Source of the DNA: Escherichia coli
GTDB lineage: Bacteria > Pseudomonadota > Gammaproteobacteria > Enterobacterales > Enterobacteriaceae
Direction: 5' to 3' (one strand)
Assembly: GCF_965641715.1 (NCBI RefSeq)
Contig: NZ_OZ282453.1
Length of the DNA: 64,000 nucleotides
Shown: piece after piece, positions 4,873 through 20,351 of the stretch
How the letters are laid out: every line of letters begins with the position of its first letter
Numbering within the stretch: the stretch's first letter is position 1
Notes under the pieces: generated by a model
The model's input: the letters and a program-made list of their open reading frames with translations, nothing else
The model's database searches: none
Told to the model about the DNA's origin: nothing
Made by a program: the position numbers and the translations under genes

Positions 4873-5105
4873 GCTGCACCTCCGAGATGCTTCATGTTTT
4901 TTCCGGAGCGAAAGGTTATAAGCGGCATACTGACGCGGTAATTACGGCCCAGCGGTTCACAAATCACCTTCTGACATTCACGGTCCACCAGGCTAACACG
5001 TAGAACATGCCCTGCGGGCGTGGTGTACCACTGACCAACGGTAGGAATTGATGTTTTTTTACGCTGAAGCAAACGGCAAATATTGAGGATCAACGGATTA
5101 AGCAT
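4869..5105 (-). CDS. Small hypothetical phage protein
   Basis: 78-aa ORF overlapping neighbours by 4 and 8 nt in the same operon. Confidence 0.3.
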   Translation of the reverse strand: MLNPLILNICRLLQRKKTSIPTVGQWYTTPAGHVLRVSLVDRECQKVICEPLGRNYRVSMPLITFRSGKNMKHLGGAA

Positions 5106-5934
5106 GACGATGCCCTCCGCTGATATTCAGGAAACGGTGAATATGAAGATTAGCCTTATCCGCCAGACGAATACGTTCAGCCTGCAAGTTAAGAAGGGTT
5201 TCTACCAGAACCTGATGCGCCTGCGGATCCGAAAGAGTTACCTTGCGCAGAGCACGTAGTGCAGTTGTTACATAGCTGAGTTTATGTAAGTCTTCATCAT
5301 TCAGACGAGTGAGGGCTGGGACAGTAGCCATGATGGCAGCCTCCGTATGCAATGGATAACTTCCACCACCGGAAACGCCAATTTCGCTGGTGGTGAACTG
5401 AGCAGGGTTGGCGTAACCGGCGCATACGGAAACCGGCGCACCTTTCGGTGCCCCCACCCAGCCCACCATAATTTGGGTATAGCTGAGTTGTAGCAACAAA
5501 AAAGACGCTAACGCGCCAATTGTCGCCGTATGCAATTCCAGGACGCCAATCCCGGCACCCGCTTTATAAGGTGCCTGAACAGTGTAACGTCCCGGAATGG
5601 CAGAATCAATGTGCTGGTGGTCCTTCACACTCAACAAAATCACGCCTGAATTTCCACAAAGGGCTAAAGCACTCATGCGGGTAGTCTTTGCGAAGATAGA
5701 TAACGCGCTGTGTTTCTGGTTCCCAACGAATAACATGGACATAAAGCCCTCTTCCGTCACGAAACCAGCGGTTAAGTTCCCGCACAACTCGCCCCCCACA
5801 GTCAGGTAAAGTTCTCTGTGGTTACTTACAGCCAGGTGATTTGGTAATCTGCATTCATGCCGTAACAACAGGTGTTCAGCGACACTGACCACCAGCTGTT
5901 GCGACAAACGGTTATTTGCCGTTAAACTGTTCAT
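5098..5934 (-). CDS. Hypothetical phage protein (early right operon)
   Basis: 278-aa ORF, co-oriented and overlapping neighbours; no motif recognised. Confidence 0.35.
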   Translation of the reverse strand: MNSLTANNRLSQQLVVSVAEHLLLRHECRLPNHLAVSNHRELYLTVGGELCGNLTAGFVTEEGFMSMLFVGNQKHSALSIFAKTTRMSALALCGNSGVILLSVKDHQHIDSAIPGRYTVQAPYKAGAGIGVLELHTATIGALASFLLLQLSYTQIMVGWVGAPKGAPVSVCAGYANPAQFTTSEIGVSGGGSYPLHTEAAIMATVPALTRLNDEDLHKLSYVTTALRALRKVTLSDPQAHQVLVETLLNLQAERIRLADKANLHIHRFLNISGGHRHA

Positions 5935-10076: not shown

Positions 10077-10429
10077 ATGTTTTCGAAATGGAAGGGTTTC
10101 TTCGCGGGAAATGTGTACCGCGAGATCTGAAAGTGAACGAAACAAATGCTGAGTACCTGGTACGTAAATTCGACGCGCTTGAAGCTAAATGTGCGGCACT
10201 GGAAAACAAAATAATACCAGTGTCAACTGAACTGCCACCAGCAAATGAAAGTGTTCTGTTATTTGATGCTAATGGAGAAGGCTGGCTGATTGGCTGGCGT
10301 TCTCTCTGGTACACCTGGGGACAAAAAGAAACCGGAGAATGGCAGTGGACATTTCAGGTCGGGGACCTTGAAAACTTCAATATCACTCACTGGGCAGTAA
10401 TGCCCAAAGCGCCGGAGGCTGGAGCATAA
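10067..10429 (+). CDS. YfdS-like phage protein
   Basis: 120 aa; overlaps neighbours by 10 nt and 1 nt, suggesting coupled translation. Confidence 0.4.
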   Translation: MRMNVFEMEGFLRGKCVPRDLKVNETNAEYLVRKFDALEAKCAALENKIIPVSTELPPANESVLLFDANGEGWLIGWRSLWYTWGQKETGEWQWTFQVGDLENFNITHWAVMPKAPEAGA

Positions 10430-11049
10430 TGACCACATTTACCAATAAAGAACTGATTAAAGAAATCAAAGAACGAATCAGCAGCCTAGAGGTTCGAGAC
10501 GATATTGAGCGCCGTGCTTATGAAATTGCTCTGGCATCGCTGGAAGAGGAGCCGGTGGCATGGCTGCATTCAGACAATGGCTTAGGTATTCCGGCAATAA
10601 CCAGGAGCAAAAACATTGCTGACAGTTGGTTATCAATGGGCTGGTATGTTCAGCCGCTATATATAGCCAAGCCAGTACTGGTGGTGCCAGATGCTCGTCC
10701 GTCTTTAAATAATGGCATAGTCGGTTTTGATGAAGGCTGGAACGCCTGCCGCGCCACCATGCTTCATGGTGCCAAACCTGTAAGCCAGACTTACAAGTTG
10801 AACAAGCTGCCGGGCAACTCTCCGGTAACTCAGGATGGTTGGATAAGCTGTAGTGAGCGAATGCCGAACGATAAACAGTATGTTTGGTGTTGGGGTAAGT
10901 CTTACGGCTGGACTGAGTGCGATACCTTCGAAGGGTATTACGATTGGTCGAGAAACAAATGGTGGGCAGTTACTGACGATGGGGAAGAACCGGCATCGAA
11001 AGTAACCCACTGGATGCCGCTACCGGAGCCACCGCAGGAGGTGAAGTAA
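10429..11049 (+). CDS. Phage protein with DUF551-like C-terminus (YfdT-like)
   Basis: 206 aa; C-terminal WWAVTDDGEEPASKVTHWMPLPEPP resembles DUF551. Confidence 0.4.
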   Translation: MTTFTNKELIKEIKERISSLEVRDDIERRAYEIALASLEEEPVAWLHSDNGLGIPAITRSKNIADSWLSMGWYVQPLYIAKPVLVVPDARPSLNNGIVGFDEGWNACRATMLHGAKPVSQTYKLNKLPGNSPVTQDGWISCSERMPNDKQYVWCWGKSYGWTECDTFEGYYDWSRNKWWAVTDDGEEPASKVTHWMPLPEPPQEVK

Positions 11050-11243
11050 TGAACAACTTAATGACAACTAAACAAGTCGCCGACTTCTGTGGCGTTTCAG
11101 TATCGACCGTTCTTCGCTGGAACAGCGTAAACAGGAGAACTGGCCAGAAATACAGGCCTGACTTTCCAGATCCTGATATTAAATCCTGCCCAAATAAATG
11201 GGCATCACGCAAGATATACAGGTTTGCTGGAGTTATTGAGTGA
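11049..11243 (+). CDS. AlpA-family HTH protein / putative excisionase
   Basis: 64 aa; TTKQVADFCGVSVSTVLRWN HTH typical of AlpA/Xis-like regulators; lies upstream of the int region. Confidence 0.55.
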   Translation: MNNLMTTKQVADFCGVSVSTVLRWNSVNRRTGQKYRPDFPDPDIKSCPNKWASRKIYRFAGVIE

Positions 11244-11278
11244 TGGGTATTAGCTCATATCAGAACTAATACCCATCA
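11241..11278. promoter_or_regulatory. Perfect 13-bp inverted repeat immediately after the xis-like stop codon
   Basis: TGATGGGTATTAG-N12-CTAATACCCATCA; no T-run follows, so a protein-binding site or RNA stem is as likely as a terminator. Confidence 0.3.
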
Positions 11279-11445
11279 ATGACACAGAGCCAACTACCCA
11301 CCCTGTGTCAGGGGCTAACTTTTAACACCATAATTCACCGCTAGATAAAAACTGTATTGCATTGCACGAGCGGCGCAGCATTATCAGTTAGAGTGTCTTT
11401 ACCTTGTTAGGCTCCACAGTTCGCACTGTCCAACGCCTGTCACTT

Positions 11446-14400
11446 TCACACGCTGCGCCTTCGAGAATATTCATTTAATCGCTGATAACGAACATCTTGC
11501 TCCAGTTGTGGAGCAGCTTGAACAATTTGAAGCAAGCATTGCCCCAACTCTCGAGGCCCCCAGTGTTGTTCGGCAATCACGGCATTCAGCAGGGATAGAG
11601 CGTCCGCAGGATATCGGCTGCAAATATCTGATTCTAGCAAAAGGCGAACGTCGTAGCTAAGGTGTTCGAGCGGTTGCAGCCAGTCCTGCACCACTGCCAA
11701 AGCCGCCGGAAATTCACCTCGGGCAGCAATCACCATACGAGTCAACGATTCGGATATGCGTGGGGTGGCCAAGTTGCGGGACTTTGGCCAAACCTGTTGC
11801 CAAAATGGCTGGACACGATTTTTCCAATACTCCTCGCGCTGATCGCCCGCACCTTCAAGTGCCTGGTATAACGCCTGCGCGGCTACCTCCAGACCTTCTT
11901 GTGGAAGAGCACTAATTGCCGTTCGGAACTCCTCCACGGTATATCCCTCGGTAGGGCCCAGAGCTGCATAAGTCAGGAAAATAGCGAATTGCTGCCGGTG
12001 CTCGCCAAGATCAGAATAGTGATTGGCGCTCTCCAAAAAATCTGACTTGAAAGCTATCAGCAACGGTTCATACAGGCGTGGCGACCAGAGGAAGCCTTCC
12101 CACACAGCTTTTGCTTCGACGGGATTACTCCAAGCAAACAAGGGCAATAGATACTGTTCGGTCCAAGGTCGATCTACGCGAAAAAATGCGATCAGCCGCG
12201 ACCCCAGCAACACCCGACCATGGCGGAATAGCTCTATCTGTACATTACACAATTTGGTGAAAAGTGTTTTCAATTCAACAGGAAGCAAATCATTGTCATT
12301 CGGGTTCTGTTTGAACCATAGGGTGATCAGTGATTGCGTGACATGCCCAATGGGATGATTGATCGCCGTAGAAACAGGATCATAGGTCTCAATTCCGTTT
12401 CGAATGGTGCTAGACTCTGGGCTTGTTTCTATCATCAGAACCCGACGACAAAGGGCCAGTAGAATCTCCTCGTGGCAGAGGATGGTCTTCGAAGCCTCCT
12501 CCATCCACCAAGTGACAGCGTGGGAAATCTCCTGAAGTACTGCGTCAGGCATGTCAAGCACCAACGGTGCGGCGTACCGCCACGAACGCAAAATCATCCC
12601 TGGTTCAGCCCAAGTCTGCAGAGCTTCACGCCACCGACCAACAGGCCACACATCATCTTGTGATAGTTTACGTAACGCATACAGACTGTGAAAAAAGCGC
12701 GTACGGCAAACATCACTCCAAGTGTCCTCATAGAAAGGCAGTCTTTCTGGCATAGGCTTTGCGAGCCATTGCACTAATTCCTGCCACTTACGGGGCGCAA
12801 TGTCGACATCTATACTCTCCTCGAAGCCTGGATCACCGGTTCCGCTCATCCAGTGAGAGAATTCATCACGCTCGTTGGTTGCCAGTTGCCATTTTGGGTA
12901 TGCTGTGGATATTTCCGTCAAACGTGTAGCCGCAGACTCTCCCAAAACAAGGCCCGCTCCCCTGAGCTTCTCTAGACACAACCAGACGGAATGAGCCACC
13001 AAATAATGCCACCTGTCTGCTTCCAAATTATCCTCGTACATCTCGCGCGGAGGCCCTGCCAAGATAGCAGTTTCCAGACGCTCTTGTGCAATTCCTGTCA
13101 GATGTCGTCCCTGCAAAACAAACAGTCTGAATACCTCTCGCCGAGTATCCGTGGCCCACAACCACCATGAACCGTCCTCTAACAACCAATTAACCCACCG
13201 CTCAGGTGGTATGCAGTTGTCTTGGCTTGCGGCAAACAGTGCCAGACGTTTGAAGGTGGGATATGGCAACTCAAACCAATTCTGAGCAATGCGCGAGGCC
13301 TGATCGCTGTCTTTGGCTCGAACGGCTAACCATGAATCCCGAAGTAATTCAATCAGGCTCACCCAATCGCGGAACCCCCGGTTCTGCCAGTGCGGAGTGA
13401 TGGACGGCAAATCCCAATGCGAGCGGTCGTGACGATCGTCGGACTCTCCCAACTCCCGCAACAAGTCCAGTGCATCACGCAACAACTGCTGAAAATCTTC
13501 CAACAGGTATGGCAAGGACGATTTCCATGACTCGTCAGCAAGGTCGAACAGGGTTGAACGTACGTAATCAGCAGTCAGCACCAGCTCCCAATCCACCAAT
13601 TGCTTGATTCGCAAGGGTTCATCAGTGCTGCTCGAATCGTCTTCACTATAGCGAAACGGCCGCCTCAACATAACCTTGGGAGAAAGCAACTCGCGTAACT
13701 CCAAGCGCAATGTAGTCGTCAAGCCTTCATTCTTTAAGCGGTTTTGCCAACGATACAAATCCAGGTTCTGCAATGGCGATTTCACACGACCACTAAGCAG
13801 AAGCCGCCATAAAGTAGACATAGGTGGACCAGGAATAGCCAGGGGGGAATGCAAGAGAATTTCATCTAACTCAGAAGTCTTACGCTCCCGCATCAGTGCT
13901 GCTAAGCGATCTAGTTCGCTCTCAATCAGAAACATCCAACGGTCGTGTATTTGTCCGCCGCGTTCAGCAATCCATATGATCAACCTAGGGTCGCCCAGAT
14001 AACGAACTAGCCAACGGGCTATATGGGACATTACGTCATCCCATTTGCTAGCACTGACACATCCAGAAACCAGCGACATCTGCGGGGCCAGCTCATAGGG
14101 CGCAGGACGCTGAACCAGACTGAATCGGAGTTTCGGGTCAATTTCGACATGCGGAGATACACAAAAGCGTGGCAGATCGCTGTATTTAAATCGTTCGTCC
14201 GAGAAAGCTTTCAATAACCAATCCAGCGGCGGTGCAGGATTGAGTTCCGCAAAGCGTTTTGCTGGTAAACCTGATTTATCTGACAAGGCCCACAACATCC
14301 GACCAACGAAATCGTCCTGACGAGTGCTGTCCTGCGGGCGGGCCAGAGCATGTTTGACGACTATAGCCTCTTTGCCCTGTATACCATCTCGATAAGTATC

Positions 14401-15273
14401 TGCCCAAGCGTGCAACGTTTGATGCAGCACTGAATGATCAGTGGAGCTCGCCGGTACGGTGTAAAGGATAGGAGTGACCCCTTTGGCCTCCCACTCGATG
14501 GCTTTCCGGTGCTCCTGCCCCGGCTCACACTCCCCCAGTGCCCATACTTGTGGTGTGACTTCACCGAGCCTCCGATCTGCTGCAAGCGCATCCATCATGT
14601 AGCGCAGTACCGGGTCGTTGATGCTGTAGCCAACGAAGCAGACCACATAGTTACGAAATAACTCACTCACAAAGCGAGCTGCCCAACGCTCAGTGAGATA
14701 AGCCAAGCCAAAGTCACCGCTGGTAACAACCAGACGATTCAGGGCAGTATCATCCGCCTTTTCCGGTAACAGCCCATGCAGGTATACAAGTCCATCCCAG
14801 CGGCTGTTTTTTGGAATTGGCAGCATCGGCGCTACATAGGCCTGAAAAGCCTGGCCTGTACGTTTAGCTGCCACATGAAAGAGACGGTCAAAGTTGGTAG
14901 TGACCAATCGAAGGGCACCCTCGCGGCTACGGGCTAAACGTAACAGCGCCGCCTGAGTATCAATAGCGCCCCTACGACGGAGCTTTGGCTTAAGGGCTTT
15001 TTCCAACGCGCGTCGGACGGCTATACGCTGCCCTGGTAAGCGCCGTTCCAGCAAATCTAATGTGCCGTCAAATTGCCCACGCTCGAAAACCTCACGCTCA
15101 ATTTCTGAAAGTGTTGTTCCGTTCCTCTGGTAAATTAGTTCTACCAACCCTTTGAAACCAGGTAAACCAGCAGGGTAGGAAATGCCTGCTCCACAGAAGA
15201 ACACAACGCGCCCTTCCTCGTGCGCCTGCAAAAGCTCATCAGGAATATCAGGGCCGTTGGTAATGAATTGCAT
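11446..15273 (-). CDS. Large SIR2-like domain protein (N-terminal SIR2-type NADase-like domain plus about 1000-aa C-terminal domain of unknown function); candidate anti-phage defence protein
   Basis: 1275-aa ORF; N-terminal motifs VVFFCGAGISYPAGLP, VTTNFDRL, VYLHG, VCFVGYSINDP; no P-loop seen downstream; sits between xis-like and int. Confidence 0.6.
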   Translation of the reverse strand: MQFITNGPDIPDELLQAHEEGRVVFFCGAGISYPAGLPGFKGLVELIYQRNGTTLSEIEREVFERGQFDGTLDLLERRLPGQRIAVRRALEKALKPKLRRRGAIDTQAALLRLARSREGALRLVTTNFDRLFHVAAKRTGQAFQAYVAPMLPIPKNSRWDGLVYLHGLLPEKADDTALNRLVVTSGDFGLAYLTERWAARFVSELFRNYVVCFVGYSINDPVLRYMMDALAADRRLGEVTPQVWALGECEPGQEHRKAIEWEAKGVTPILYTVPASSTDHSVLHQTLHAWADTYRDGIQGKEAIVVKHALARPQDSTRQDDFVGRMLWALSDKSGLPAKRFAELNPAPPLDWLLKAFSDERFKYSDLPRFCVSPHVEIDPKLRFSLVQRPAPYELAPQMSLVSGCVSASKWDDVMSHIARWLVRYLGDPRLIIWIAERGGQIHDRWMFLIESELDRLAALMRERKTSELDEILLHSPLAIPGPPMSTLWRLLLSGRVKSPLQNLDLYRWQNRLKNEGLTTTLRLELRELLSPKVMLRRPFRYSEDDSSSTDEPLRIKQLVDWELVLTADYVRSTLFDLADESWKSSLPYLLEDFQQLLRDALDLLRELGESDDRHDRSHWDLPSITPHWQNRGFRDWVSLIELLRDSWLAVRAKDSDQASRIAQNWFELPYPTFKRLALFAASQDNCIPPERWVNWLLEDGSWWLWATDTRREVFRLFVLQGRHLTGIAQERLETAILAGPPREMYEDNLEADRWHYLVAHSVWLCLEKLRGAGLVLGESAATRLTEISTAYPKWQLATNERDEFSHWMSGTGDPGFEESIDVDIAPRKWQELVQWLAKPMPERLPFYEDTWSDVCRTRFFHSLYALRKLSQDDVWPVGRWREALQTWAEPGMILRSWRYAAPLVLDMPDAVLQEISHAVTWWMEEASKTILCHEEILLALCRRVLMIETSPESSTIRNGIETYDPVSTAINHPIGHVTQSLITLWFKQNPNDNDLLPVELKTLFTKLCNVQIELFRHGRVLLGSRLIAFFRVDRPWTEQYLLPLFAWSNPVEAKAVWEGFLWSPRLYEPLLIAFKSDFLESANHYSDLGEHRQQFAIFLTYAALGPTEGYTVEEFRTAISALPQEGLEVAAQALYQALEGAGDQREEYWKNRVQPFWQQVWPKSRNLATPRISESLTRMVIAARGEFPAALAVVQDWLQPLEHLSYDVRLLLESDICSRYPADALSLLNAVIAEQHWGPRELGQCLLQIVQAAPQLEQDVRYQRLNEYSRRRSV

Positions 15274-15455
15274 TCCTTTTCCTCCTATCCAATGTGCACG
15301 TTCATTCGAGTAAATGAAGGCAAGGGGTTACATCTTATTATACCGACCGTGCAAATCCGGCTTCCTAGCAAGCTACTTTACTTGCCAACTCATAATGTCC
15401 GAACTCCGAACAAAGCGGACTGCTAGATTTGATTGCGTTCTAGCTACGCAAAATA

Positions 15456-16679
15456 TCATTTCGAGCCTGAACGAGTACAAGTAACAATCGATTCAACTCT
15501 CTCCCACCATGCCTGGTAGGCTTTACGCTGTTCTTCTAGATAATCACTCTTGTCATAAACTTGCCATACACCTGGCAGTTTATGACCGAGCATTATTTCA
15601 GCAATATGAGGCGCAGTAAGATCAGAAAAGTTTGTTCGTGCTGTTCGTCTCAAATCATGAAGAGACCAATGAGGAAATTGATACCCCAAACGCCGCCATG
15701 CGTACTGCATTAAATTGTAAGGCAGCGACTGCAATGATGTCCGACCAACTGGTTCCCTGCTTCCTTCCTTAGTAAAAAGCATATCGGAACCGTTGTTCAT
15801 AGAGATAACGTATTTTATAAGCTCTTCAACCGGTTCAATAATGGGCCGCTTTAGCGGTTTGCCTGTTATATCCCCTGTCTTATGTCGTTCTGGTGGTACA
15901 GTCCATATTTTATTAATGAAATCAAAATCGTCCACCTTGGCAGTAATTAGCTCTGAACTACGGCAACCAAAATGCAGCAATAGTTTAATGAAGGCCCGGT
16001 ATTTAGGAACCATTCGAGAACCATCGATCGCAGCATAAAGGATTTTAATTTCATCATGTGTCAGAAACCGTTTCTTCTGACCTTTACGGATATCCATATC
16101 TTTACCCGTGATATCCGACAGCGGGCGAGTTTCAATGAGCTTTCTCTTATACGCCCAGACATGGGCCTGCTTTGCGTTAATTAGCAATCGGTCTGCTATT
16201 GCTGGAGTCTTAGTGCTAAGAGGCTCCAGGACTTCTAACCAATCATGCAATGTAGCTGCATCGTGAGGGATATTCCCGATTTTAGAGAACAGGTGCAGCT
16301 CAAACGAGCGGAGTATCTGTTCAGAACCTTTTTTATTTTTTACACAATATGCTTCATACCAAGCACGGATCACAGATTCTACCGTCATGGCTTCAGTAGC
16401 TTTACGTTTTTCTGCCAGCTTGACCAATCGTGGATTGCGGTTTGACTCGAGTTCACCACGAAGACGGATAACTTCTTCTCTGGCCTCTTTTAGTCCAGTT
16501 GCCGGGTAAGTTCCGATATCAAGACGCTCACCTTTCCCCGCCCACTGATAACGATATTGGAACACTACGCGACCTTTCGGTGATACTCTAACAGACAGAC
16601 CATCACGATCGGATTTAACCAAAACCTTATCACGTTCCTTTCCAACGACTGAACGCAACCACGCATCAGACAGCGCCAT
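15456..16679 (-). CDS. int: Tyrosine recombinase / phage integrase with N-terminal arm-binding domain
   Basis: 407 aa; N-terminus typical of P4/CP4-57-like integrases; catalytic region with HDLRRT and LGHK motifs. Confidence 0.85.
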   Translation of the reverse strand: MALSDAWLRSVVGKERDKVLVKSDRDGLSVRVSPKGRVVFQYRYQWAGKGERLDIGTYPATGLKEAREEVIRLRGELESNRNPRLVKLAEKRKATEAMTVESVIRAWYEAYCVKNKKGSEQILRSFELHLFSKIGNIPHDAATLHDWLEVLEPLSTKTPAIADRLLINAKQAHVWAYKRKLIETRPLSDITGKDMDIRKGQKKRFLTHDEIKILYAAIDGSRMVPKYRAFIKLLLHFGCRSSELITAKVDDFDFINKIWTVPPERHKTGDITGKPLKRPIIEPVEELIKYVISMNNGSDMLFTKEGSREPVGRTSLQSLPYNLMQYAWRRLGYQFPHWSLHDLRRTARTNFSDLTAPHIAEIMLGHKLPGVWQVYDKSDYLEEQRKAYQAWWERVESIVTCTRSGSK

Positions 16680-17064: not shown

Positions 17065-17742
17065 TCAGTGTTTACACAGGAGCTGCTCCAGTTCGTGCAA
17101 CGAAGAAACGGTCCAGGTGGGCGCGATGCCTTCTGGTTGCTCGCGATTGTGCGCATTCAGCCAGCAGGTCGCAAGCCCGGCGTTGATGCCACCGAGAATA
17201 TCGGACTCGGCAGTGTCGCCAACCATCAGCACGCGTGAACGGTCAGGATTGCCCGCCTGTTCCAGCGCATAATCGAAAATTTTCTTATTCGGTTTGGCAA
17301 CGCCAACTTCTTCGGAAATCACCAGCAAATCGAAGTAATCACGCAGGCCCGTCCGTTCCAGACGCACTTGCTGCAAGGCACTAAAACCGTTGGTGATGAT
17401 GCCGATTTTGGCGTTGCCACGAATGGCGTTAAGCAGAGAAACCGCGCCCGGCAGCGGCGTGCAGATTTCCGCCATCGCATTAATAAAGGCTTCGTTGAGT
17501 TTACCCGGCTCGACGTTCAGCCGTTCGGCCCAGCTCTCAAACCGCCCGTGCTGAAGCTGTAATGAAGTGATCGCGCCGTTTTGATAATCCACCCACAGTG
17601 GCTTGTTAACGGCCTGATAGTCCTGAAAATCTTCAGCGGTAAAGGTGACGCTGTAATCAAGAAACATCCGCTGCAGGCCGGTGAATGAGTCAAAGGTAAA
17701 CAGCGTTTCATCGGCATCAAAGAAAATCCAGTCCCACTTCAT
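17065..17742 (-). CDS. yjjG: HAD-family pyrimidine 5'-nucleotidase YjjG
   Basis: 225 aa; starts [15 protein letters not shown] (HAD motif I DxD); matches recalled K-12 YjjG and gene order. Confidence 0.85.
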
Positions 17743-20028: not shown

Positions 20029-20115
20029 GCGAAGGTGGCGGAATTGGTAGACGCGCTAGCTTCAGGTGTTAGTGTCCTTACGGACGTGGGGGTTCAAGTC
20101 CCCCCCCTCGCACCA
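20029..20115 (+). tRNA. leuQ: tRNA-Leu (anticodon CAG)
   Basis: 87-nt sequence GCGAAGGTGGCGGAATTGGTAGACGCG ... CCCTCGCACCA; anticodon loop CTTCAGGTG. Confidence 0.9.
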
Positions 20116-20143
20116 AAAACCACGTTGATATTGCTCGCACTGG

Positions 20144-20230
20144 GCGAAGGTGGCGGAATTGGTAGACGCGCTAGCTTCAGGTGTTAGTGTTCTTACGGAC
20201 GTGGGGGTTCAAGTCCCCCCCCTCGCACCA
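20144..20230 (+). tRNA. leuP: tRNA-Leu (anticodon CAG), one substitution relative to the flanking copies
   Basis: 87-nt copy; variable-arm difference GTGTTCTTACGG versus GTGTCCTTACGG. Confidence 0.9.
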
Positions 20231-20264
20231 AACGAGGCGATATCAAAAAAAGTAAGATGACTGT

Positions 20265-20351
20265 GCGAAGGTGGCGGAATTGGTAGACGCGCTAGCTTCA
20301 GGTGTTAGTGTCCTTACGGACGTGGGGGTTCAAGTCCCCCCCCTCGCACCA
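20265..20351 (+). tRNA. leuV: tRNA-Leu (anticodon CAG)
   Basis: 87-nt copy identical to the first. Confidence 0.9.

Follow-up and report, generated by a model that had tools for sequence, protein, structure and literature searches.

The 64,000-nt stretch of Escherichia coli DNA analysed here (contig NZ_OZ282453.1; hereafter the window) carries a lambdoid, cdtI-like prophage, which adjoins yjjG, rimI and holD and which contains a perfect inverted repeat at the stop codon of its xis-like gene. The genes around this repeat are ordered as an early-left operon with xis as its last gene (+ strand), a group of hairpins, dsr1 (- strand), and a P4-type integrase gene (- strand). The xis-like open reading frame (ORF; 11049..11243, + strand) encodes a 64-aa helix-turn-helix protein with weak matches to Pfam HTH_17 and HTH_23, and its homologue in phage cdtI has been annotated as an excisionase. 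The dsr1 gene (11446..15273, - strand) encodes a protein of 1275 aa with a SIR2_2 domain (Pfam, 9e-23), and an identical gene is named 'anti-phage defense-associated sirtuin Dsr1' in RefSeq. The int gene (15456..16679, - strand), which is convergent with xis, encodes a tyrosine integrase with Pfam domains Arm-DNA-bind_3, Phage_int_M and Phage_integrase, and the att site lies on the far side of int, at 5.4 kb from the repeat. This paper describes the analysis of the inverted repeat, which is very probably the outermost part of the left terminal repeat of a transposon that carries dsr1 as cargo, lacks a transposase, and descends from an insertion sequence (IS) of the IS481 family.

The left arm of the repeat, TGATGGGTATTAG (11241-11253, + strand), and its right arm, CTAATACCCATCA (11266-11278, + strand), form 13+13 perfectly complementary positions around a 12-nt spacer, exactly as described in an earlier note on this DNA, and the repeat starts, as was also claimed there, at the stop codon of the xis-like gene (TGA, 11241-11243). 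A repeat search extended the arm pair to 16 nt with 94% complementarity and a 6-nt loop. According to our own arithmetic, approximately 0.02 perfect 13-bp inverted repeats with a spacer of at most 20 nt are expected in 64 kb, and the repeat thus exceeds chance. The 13-mer is unique in the window apart from its own complement, the next-nearest match having 2 mismatches, which is at chance level. The hairpin formed by the two arms (HP1) has a predicted stability of -20.0 kcal/mol on the + strand and -24.9 kcal/mol on the - strand, where the stem reaches 16 pairs via a G.U pair, and the 121-nt region around it has a z-score of -3.8 relative to dinucleotide shuffles. A second hairpin, HP2 (11280..11310, + strand), is located directly 3' of the first, with TGACACAG (11280-87) pairing with CTGTGTCA (11303-10). 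The earlier note also held that the repeat is not a typical intrinsic terminator and placed it between the early operon and the convergent SIR2 gene, and both points are correct. The repeat marks the exact boundary between xis and dsr1, no T-run is found 3' of the hairpin on either strand, only 5 of the 13 stem pairs are G-C, the loop measures 6-12 nt, and a terminator scan of both strands did not call the hairpin, its sole call being a weak 5-bp stem at 11301-11313.

The same slot between xis and int is occupied in other genomes by approximately 20 cargo types besides DSR1, including CHAT, AIPR and many hypothetical proteins, in relatives of which the Xis and Int proteins are 95-100% identical. 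The 125 nt following xis occur in 34 versions among 86 loci, and the version tracks the cargo type, such that each type at this slot has its own version of the ends. The layout of HP1 followed by HP2 (family form GGCACAGAGC...GCTCTGTGCC) is kept in all but one of the 34 versions. Conservation in related prophages, which the earlier note had proposed as a check, holds for this two-hairpin layout, but not for the strength of HP1, which amounts to -20.0 and -16.7 kcal/mol in two DSR1 lineages as compared to -2.4 to -11.2 kcal/mol with other cargo. HP2 is the best-conserved feature of this type of end, and its loop, CCAAACCTAATCTGAC, is conserved more than its stems. A third hairpin, HP3 (GTCTGCTCT-N6-AGAGCAGAC), shares a GCTCT segment with HP2 (window 11280-11313; alignment columns 41-96), so that the two folds are mutually exclusive. 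A small ORF starting from an invariant ATG between the hairpins was considered and rejected, as no conserved ORF was seen by eye.

The variation among these versions bears on the possibility that the repeat is primarily an RNA element, i.e., a terminator without a U-tract, a processing site (for RNase III, for instance), or a stem stabilising the 3' end, which would end or insulate the xis (early-left) and/or the convergent int-dsr1 transcript and which may damp the translation of Xis. Hairpins of the repetitive extragenic palindromic (REP) type are reported to lower the translation of the upstream gene when they are situated within 15 nt of its stop codon, and the stem described here, which begins at the xis stop codon, has the position of such a stop-proximal, REP-like hairpin. 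Its exact location between convergent genes, the G.U-extended 16-pair stem of the - strand, and the maintenance of the hairpin between the two DSR1 lineages agree with an RNA role, as does the finding that both strands fold better than dinucleotide shuffles (mean z -2.8 for the + strand and -3.4 for the - strand). The - strand folds lower in 32 of the 34 variants, but the difference is small after the dinucleotide-shuffle control. However, in most cargo types an identical xis is followed by only a weak hairpin, and two cargo types have no excess folding at all. Moreover, RNAalifold detected almost no consensus structure among 21 variants, pair counts across cargo types (67-80% pairing) did not exceed those of column shuffles, and strong structural covariation was consequently dropped as a candidate. 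A T/U run is lacking on both strands, and neither the window copy nor either of two consensus-like copies had a relevant match in Rfam 15 at E<=10. These results do not support a general RNA role linked to xis.

The same set of relatives is also informative on the suggestion, made in the earlier note, that the repeat is a protein recognition site, in particular a binding site for the Xis-like protein, Int or another phage regulator. Its dyad symmetry and the adjoining xis gene are in line with such a function, but prophages with a 100% identical Xis and a 95-98% identical Int (approximately 97% in the closest comparison) have a quite different sequence at this position. In addition, no second copy of the half-site is present near att, the int promoter or the immunity region, att itself lies beyond int, and the element also occurs in contexts that lack this Xis or Int. 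On the basis of these sequence comparisons the Xis/Int-site reading is close to refuted, and a function of this kind is extremely improbable. The suggestion of a protein recognition site may nonetheless stand in another sense, as the repeat would descend from a terminal repeat recognised by an IS481-family transposase.

Copies of the element that are independent of xis were searched for by means of the exact HP2 pattern in IMG/VR contigs without this xis gene. Homologous ends of approximately 90 nt were found to bracket variable cargo at several unrelated places. In P2-like phages the element directly follows gpS (at the variable locus called S/V or orf30), and further copies follow the portal gene gpQ and gpU, among other positions, and in at least 13 of the non-xis loci an inverted right (R-type) end is located at 0.7-3.8 kb from the left (L-type) end. 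In phage P2 itself, fun(Z) lies between an L-type end (E=2e-15), which sits directly on the gene G stop codon, and an R-type end in inverted orientation (E=2e-11). Matches to the ends are present in 2382 of 5426 complete E. coli genomes and in 94 plasmids from many Enterobacterales, including Yersinia and Salmonella, and a scan for the terminal motif in one genome per species yielded 52 loci in Gamma- and Betaproteobacteria. The cargo of the other cassettes includes AAA_13, TIR, GmrSD_N, DUF2971, FRG, PhzF and ars genes, and no transposase matching the ends was found among the cargo proteins examined.

Several of these copies merit separate description. An arsenic-resistance operon (arsH/R/B/C-like ORFs, identified by eye) constitutes the cargo of a P2-like S/V cassette (locus L095, 1944-5057), and cassette cargo is thus not limited to defence genes. 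A 5.2-kb cassette of Kosakonia (L157, 4097-9326) contains a nested IS110-family transposase gene (DEDD_Tnp_IS110 and Transposase_20) that is unrelated to the ends. In phage P2 (L132) a partial copy (17554-17621, - strand; model positions 17-84, E=1e-4) lies between tin and old. In a Yersinia pseudotuberculosis plasmid (L130, 8338-8426) a single cassette has two inner-end segments, placed back to back, between two of its cargo genes, which looks like the product of a fusion or recombination of two cassettes via their inner ends. E. coli B (L129, 5006-5097) has a solo L-type end exactly on the stop codon of nanQ, with no R-type end within 5 kb; an adjoining 101-aa ORF (5082-5387) is annotated as 'transposase', had no Pfam match and was not used. 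The last gpS codons and stop codon of P2-like phages (L122, 8639-8665, and relatives) are encoded by the element ends. Finally, 71-bp mini forms without cargo, which consist of two terminal repeats back to back, are present in metagenome-assembled genomes (MAGs) of Solimicrobium (L135, 5295-5366) and Legionellaceae (L179, 3288-3359).

These additional contexts complete the evidence on an RNA element. In P2, the position after gene S, where P2-like relatives carry the element, is taken by an unlike sequence with the annotation 'putative rho-independent terminator for O operon', which is in favour of a terminator-like function. Nevertheless, the annotated V-operon terminator of P2 lies approximately 280 nt beyond the left end and inside the cassette, and the same sequence also occurs as a right end where no upstream gene needs termination. 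Moreover, an RNA function leaves both the inverted partner and the 7-bp duplications described below unexplained. That the repeat is primarily an RNA element is considered unlikely.

Both types of end were recognised in the window, which contains exactly one pair of them within its 64 kb. The cassette extends from 11246 to 15479 (4.2 kb) and has dsr1 as its sole gene. Its right end (R-type, 15394..15479, - strand) has the opposite orientation to the left end and finishes with ...GAGTACA, of which the final CA occupies 15478-79. A profile built exclusively from non-xis contexts matched it at 15479-15394 (nhmmer, - strand, E=4.4e-8, covering model positions 4-89). This right end also encodes the int stop codon and the 7 codons before it (window 15456-15479). 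The degenerate left end (L-type, 11246..11319, + strand) was identified by nhmmer and by alignment with relatives. The L-end profile from other contexts matched 11244-11319 (+ strand) with E=0.03, and a column-by-column alignment was obtained with 20 relatives located after the same xis, for which the E values range from 1e-5 to 1e-20. In the window copy the tip TATTAGCTCA is kept, the terminal TG is replaced by GG (11246-47), both CTGACA motifs are gone, and the HP2 loop is partly deleted; the relatives L004 and L079 have the terminal TG at the same site. The inverted repeat corresponds to the outer 33 nt of this left end plus the flank. Its left arm comprises 5 nt of flanking sequence, followed by the terminal dinucleotide, which is GG instead of the TG of the family, and by the tip TATTAG. 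The right arm falls within the left end, at a place for which the family consensus is GAGCTGACACATC. The left end in the window is, as judged by its sequence, a fossil transposon tip.

The DNA immediately outside the ends carries the signature of transposition. The termini of intact copies read TG...CA, and the 7 nt flanking them on either side match at 38 of 42 positions over six independent insertions, as compared to 8-18 of 42 in other registers and at most 24 of 42 in mismatched pairings. In the scan of one genome per species, perfect 7/7 duplications, all of them different, flank 11 of the 19 end pairs, and 2 more pairs have 6/7 duplications. Two plasmid cassettes are enclosed by the perfect duplications GCTAATA and ATTCAGT. 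The former, which is the duplicated target of a Yersinia plasmid cassette, also occurs as a flank in P2-like phages and is the inverse of the element tip TATTAGC. In the window the duplication copies AGTGATG (11239..11245, containing the xis stop codon) and AGTAACA (15480..15486) match at 4 of 7 positions. The left copy is degenerate and reads AGTAACG in relatives at the same site, and the same insertion is flanked by AGTAACG on both sides (7/7) in L004 and by a 6/7 duplication in L009. Accordingly aligned, the xis/int junctions read AGTAACG|TG-TATTAT...CAGTA-CA|AGTAACG in L004; those of the window are AGTGATG|GG-TATTAG (left) and GAGTA-CA|AGTAACA (right). The target consensus is nnTNAnn: of 20 targets, 18 have T at position 3, 19 have A at position 5, and 11 have TAA as the central triplet. 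In three checked cases (xis, P2 G and nanQ) this TAA is the stop codon of the upstream gene. The repeat abuts the xis stop codon because the family targets nnTNAnn, mostly TAA.

The identity of the transposition machinery is indicated by autonomous relatives of 1201-1206 bp in Catenovulum (L138), Xenorhabdus (L163) and a gammaproteobacterial MAG (L176). These elements have the same 26-bp terminal repeats and 7-bp duplications as the cassettes, and each of them contains one ORF of 344-346 aa that matches the NCBIfam model NF033577 for IS481-family transposases (E=5.5e-87; 291.9 bits against a curated cut-off of 224), as well as Pfam HTH_29 and rve. The first 26 bp of intact cassette ends, TGTATTAGCTCAGACTTGAyCTGACA, correspond to the repeats of the autonomous IS, and beyond these shared 26 bp the cassette ends comprise approximately 65 nt (HP2/HP3) that are specific to the cargo-carrying forms.

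The ends could alternatively be sites of conservative site-specific recombination, comparable to integron attC sites or to the exchange sites of an invertase. A review passage on the repeats of P2 fun states that they 'enable site-specific recombination' (PMC8987985), the structured and sequence-variable ends travel with each cargo type, and a tyrosine recombinase gene is adjacent to the cassette in the window. However, the flanking 7-bp repeats differ at every site, which is a signature of transposition with staggered cuts and not of a fixed crossover core, the ends are inverted rather than direct, the autonomous copies encode a DDE (rve) transposase of the IS481 family, and the P2-like, plasmid and chromosomal copies have no recombinase alongside. 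Conservative recombination at the ends is therefore very unlikely. Integron attC sites in the strict sense were rejected, as the ends form inverted pairs around single cassettes with variable 7-bp duplications and the neighbouring recombinase is a P4-type phage integrase; a GTT is common after HP3, but the matching AAC partner is lacking when judged by eye. The two flanks were also considered as halves of one ancestral palindromic terminator that was split by cargo, which was rejected in view of the full-length ends with 7-bp duplications at unrelated sites.

The perfection of the inverted repeat itself is specific to cassettes with DSR1. The family consensus tip is a weak palindrome (AGCTCA-N4-TGAGCT plus ATGTGT/ACACAT), from which the DSR1-lineage tip differs by concerted changes that lead to the perfect 13-bp stem. 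A second DSR1 lineage, diverged by approximately 9%, is found in 7 of the 71 E. coli genomes carrying DSR1. The two lineages differ at 7 of 38 hairpin positions, all of which are either in the loop or compatible with pairing, and the hairpin of the second lineage retains -16.7 kcal/mol, a stability that is kept by only 0.3-1.6% of random sets of 7 substitutions. Furthermore, the change of the stop codon from TAA to TGA goes together with a T-to-A change in the opposite arm, by which two pairs are added. The maintenance of the hairpin in both lineages suggests a secondary structural role at the xis/dsr1 junction. Alternatively, the perfect repeat may have no function and may have arisen when the quasi-palindrome of the tip was 'corrected' by intramolecular template switching during replication, after which it persisted. 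Relative to the consensus TAAyGTGTATTAGCTCAGATGTGAGCTGACACATC, the clustered changes, including a 2-nt insertion, without exception bring the right arm into exact complementarity with the left arm, and the end was already a fossil that had lost the TG and CTGACA motifs, both of which would fit such an event. The two DSR1 lineages keep a long hairpin despite their 7 differences, a result equalled by few random sets, and this preservation, together with the coupled change of the stop codon and the opposite arm, speaks against a functionless repeat, which is considered rather unlikely. Taken together, the changes in the DSR1 tip point either to selection on structure or to templated quasi-palindrome correction.

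The history of the locus may be reconstructed as follows. In the ancestral phage, xis and int would have been convergent with an overlap of approximately 11 nt, as in the reconstructed empty site GTTATTGAGTAACGATCGATTC. The element would then have inserted into the 7-bp target AG-TAA-CG that contains the xis stop codon and would have duplicated this target, with the DDE transposase presumably binding the 26-bp repeats and cleaving at TG/CA, as deduced from the family. After such an insertion xis would keep its own stop codon, abutting the tip, and the right end would provide int with a stop codon and the 7 codons preceding it. Subsequently, the window copy would have decayed through the change of TG to GG, the loss of both CTGACA motifs and drift of the duplication, and in the DSR1 lineage the weak quasi-palindrome of the tip would have become a long, perfect hairpin that recruited the flank including the stop codon. 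This hairpin has probably been reused at the junction of the convergent xis and dsr1 transcripts, for example as a 3'-end stem-loop or an insulator.

Descent from a transposase-less IS481 derivative is supported by the observed homology of the ends, their inverted arrangement, the variable 7-bp duplications and the IS481 transposase in the autonomous copies, and the cassettes would have been mobilised in trans. Several observations weigh against this explanation. The left end of the window on its own reaches only E=0.03, lacks the TG terminus and has a 4/7 duplication, and membership of the window copy in the family consequently rests on its same-site relatives and on the strong right end. Chimeric junction queries detected no empty site for the three insertions tested, namely the one at xis/int, searched for in E. 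coli genomes and phages, and two on plasmids, and mobility is thus deduced from the duplications. A P2-like S/V insertion has no clear duplication, only the outer 26 bp are common to the IS and the cassettes, and IS481 copies of this subgroup were found in other genera but not in E. coli. With respect to a structural role of the tip, the covariation of the hairpin across cargo types is weak (paired fraction of 76% versus 75% in the column-shuffle control), and the mean z-scores of the two strands (-2.8 and -3.4) are nearly alike.

In a broader reading, IS481-derived cassettes without transposase would be a general and unrecognised vehicle of defence and accessory genes at phage hotspots, which seeded loci via TAA stop codons, of which the ends serve as portable borders (homology arms or insulators) for cargo swaps, and of which the left tip in DSR1 cassettes was exapted into a selected hairpin. 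The loci seeded in this manner may include P2 fun(Z), two loci of P2-like phages (S/V and portal-side), the xis/int slot of lambdoid prophages, plasmids, and chromosomal sites such as nanQ. This broader reading is tentative, and its chances are judged to be somewhat below even. It is acknowledged that the rapid exchange of defence genes at fixed hotspots of temperate phages still lacks an explanation, a question which becomes testable by the finding that borders at such loci are homologous across P2-like phages, lambdoid prophages of the Stx/cdt type, plasmids and chromosomes and have the hallmarks of IS481-type transposition. Profiles of the ends could delimit cargo genome-wide, including unknown defence genes. 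Besides, an annotation oddity is explained, as it is the element that provides the C-termini and stop codons of int, gpS and similar border genes. The outcome for the window itself is modest, i.e., a fossil transposon tip that was possibly reused structurally, and transposon-type borders at phage variable loci appear to be the wider pattern worth following up.

Some further features of the prophage region were recorded. Between the right end and the dsr1 start (15274-15393, - strand) a perfect TATAAT and a GGAGG ribosome-binding site were seen by eye, and dsr1 probably has its own promoter within the cassette. The DUF551 gene upstream of xis (10429-11049) is an intact 206-aa ORF in the window, and the same gene is represented in RefSeq by two partial pseudogene pieces in L002 (6530-7150; 100% identical E. 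coli AMSHJX01 region). Three tandem, leuQPV-like tRNA-Leu(CAG) genes are present at 20029-20351, and the prophage is located between these genes and prfC.

The element described here resembles several known systems, from each of which it also differs. Insertion sequences of the IS481 family resemble it in the 26-bp terminal repeat, in termini of the form TG...CA and in a 7-bp duplication centred on TNA. The window element, in contrast, lacks a transposase, contains a defence gene of 3.8 kb, and has ends of approximately 90 nt (with approximately 65 extra nt comprising HP2/HP3), the left one of which is degenerate. Stable stem-loops located 3' of int- or xis-type genes or between convergent genes include the lambda sib/tI retroregulation hairpin, REP elements near stop codons, and bidirectional intrinsic terminators. 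The window hairpin differs from these by the absence of a U-tract, a negative Rfam result and a strength that varies among phages with the same xis, and the likeness is one of analogy only.

In mobile insertion cassettes and MITEs (miniature transposable elements with inverted repeats), passenger genes are situated between the ends of an IS or transposon and are mobilised in trans. These elements and TIME-COMP-type elements have in common with the present cassettes the terminal inverted repeats, the target duplications, the absence of a transposase and the passenger genes, and the 71-bp mini forms without cargo in this cassette family parallel those of mobile insertion cassettes and MITEs. The differences, also with respect to the TIME elements of which descriptions are given in PMC13367494, are the IS481 source, the longer and asymmetric ends (L versus R), and the concentration at phage variable loci directly on stop codons. 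Inverted repeats flanking P2 fun(Z) were described by Nilsson, Karlsson and Haggard-Ljungquist in 2004 (Mol Biol Evol 21:1), as cited in a passage of PMC8987985, in which they are interpreted in terms of site-specific recombination. The homologous ends and a superinfection-exclusion or defence cargo that is convergent with the upstream operon are common to fun(Z) and the window cassette, which differs in its host, a lambdoid cdtI-like prophage, its position in the xis/int slot and its DSR1 cargo. The window cassette appears to belong to the family first noticed around P2 fun(Z), for which the data presented here point to IS481-type transposition.

A literature search on the sequence strings, on defence cassettes flanked by terminal inverted repeats and on 7-bp duplications retrieved nothing relevant. 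The closest published setting is that of the phage defence hotspots (2022, PMC9122126; Moura de Sousa et al. 2026, 10.64898/2026.02.27.708500), which likewise feature variable defence cargo between core genes with rapid turnover, and some of the P2 loci in these surveys, next to the portal gene and within the late genes, are the same as those found here. Hairpins, inverted repeats and terminators at the hotspot borders are unmentioned in both surveys (PMC9122126; 10.64898/2026.02.27.708500), which leave the exchange mechanism open, and Rousset et al. (2022) offered only speculation on recombination of cos ends for hotspot exchange. In comparison with these surveys, the distinguishing feature of the loci analysed here is that their borders would be IS481-derived ends.

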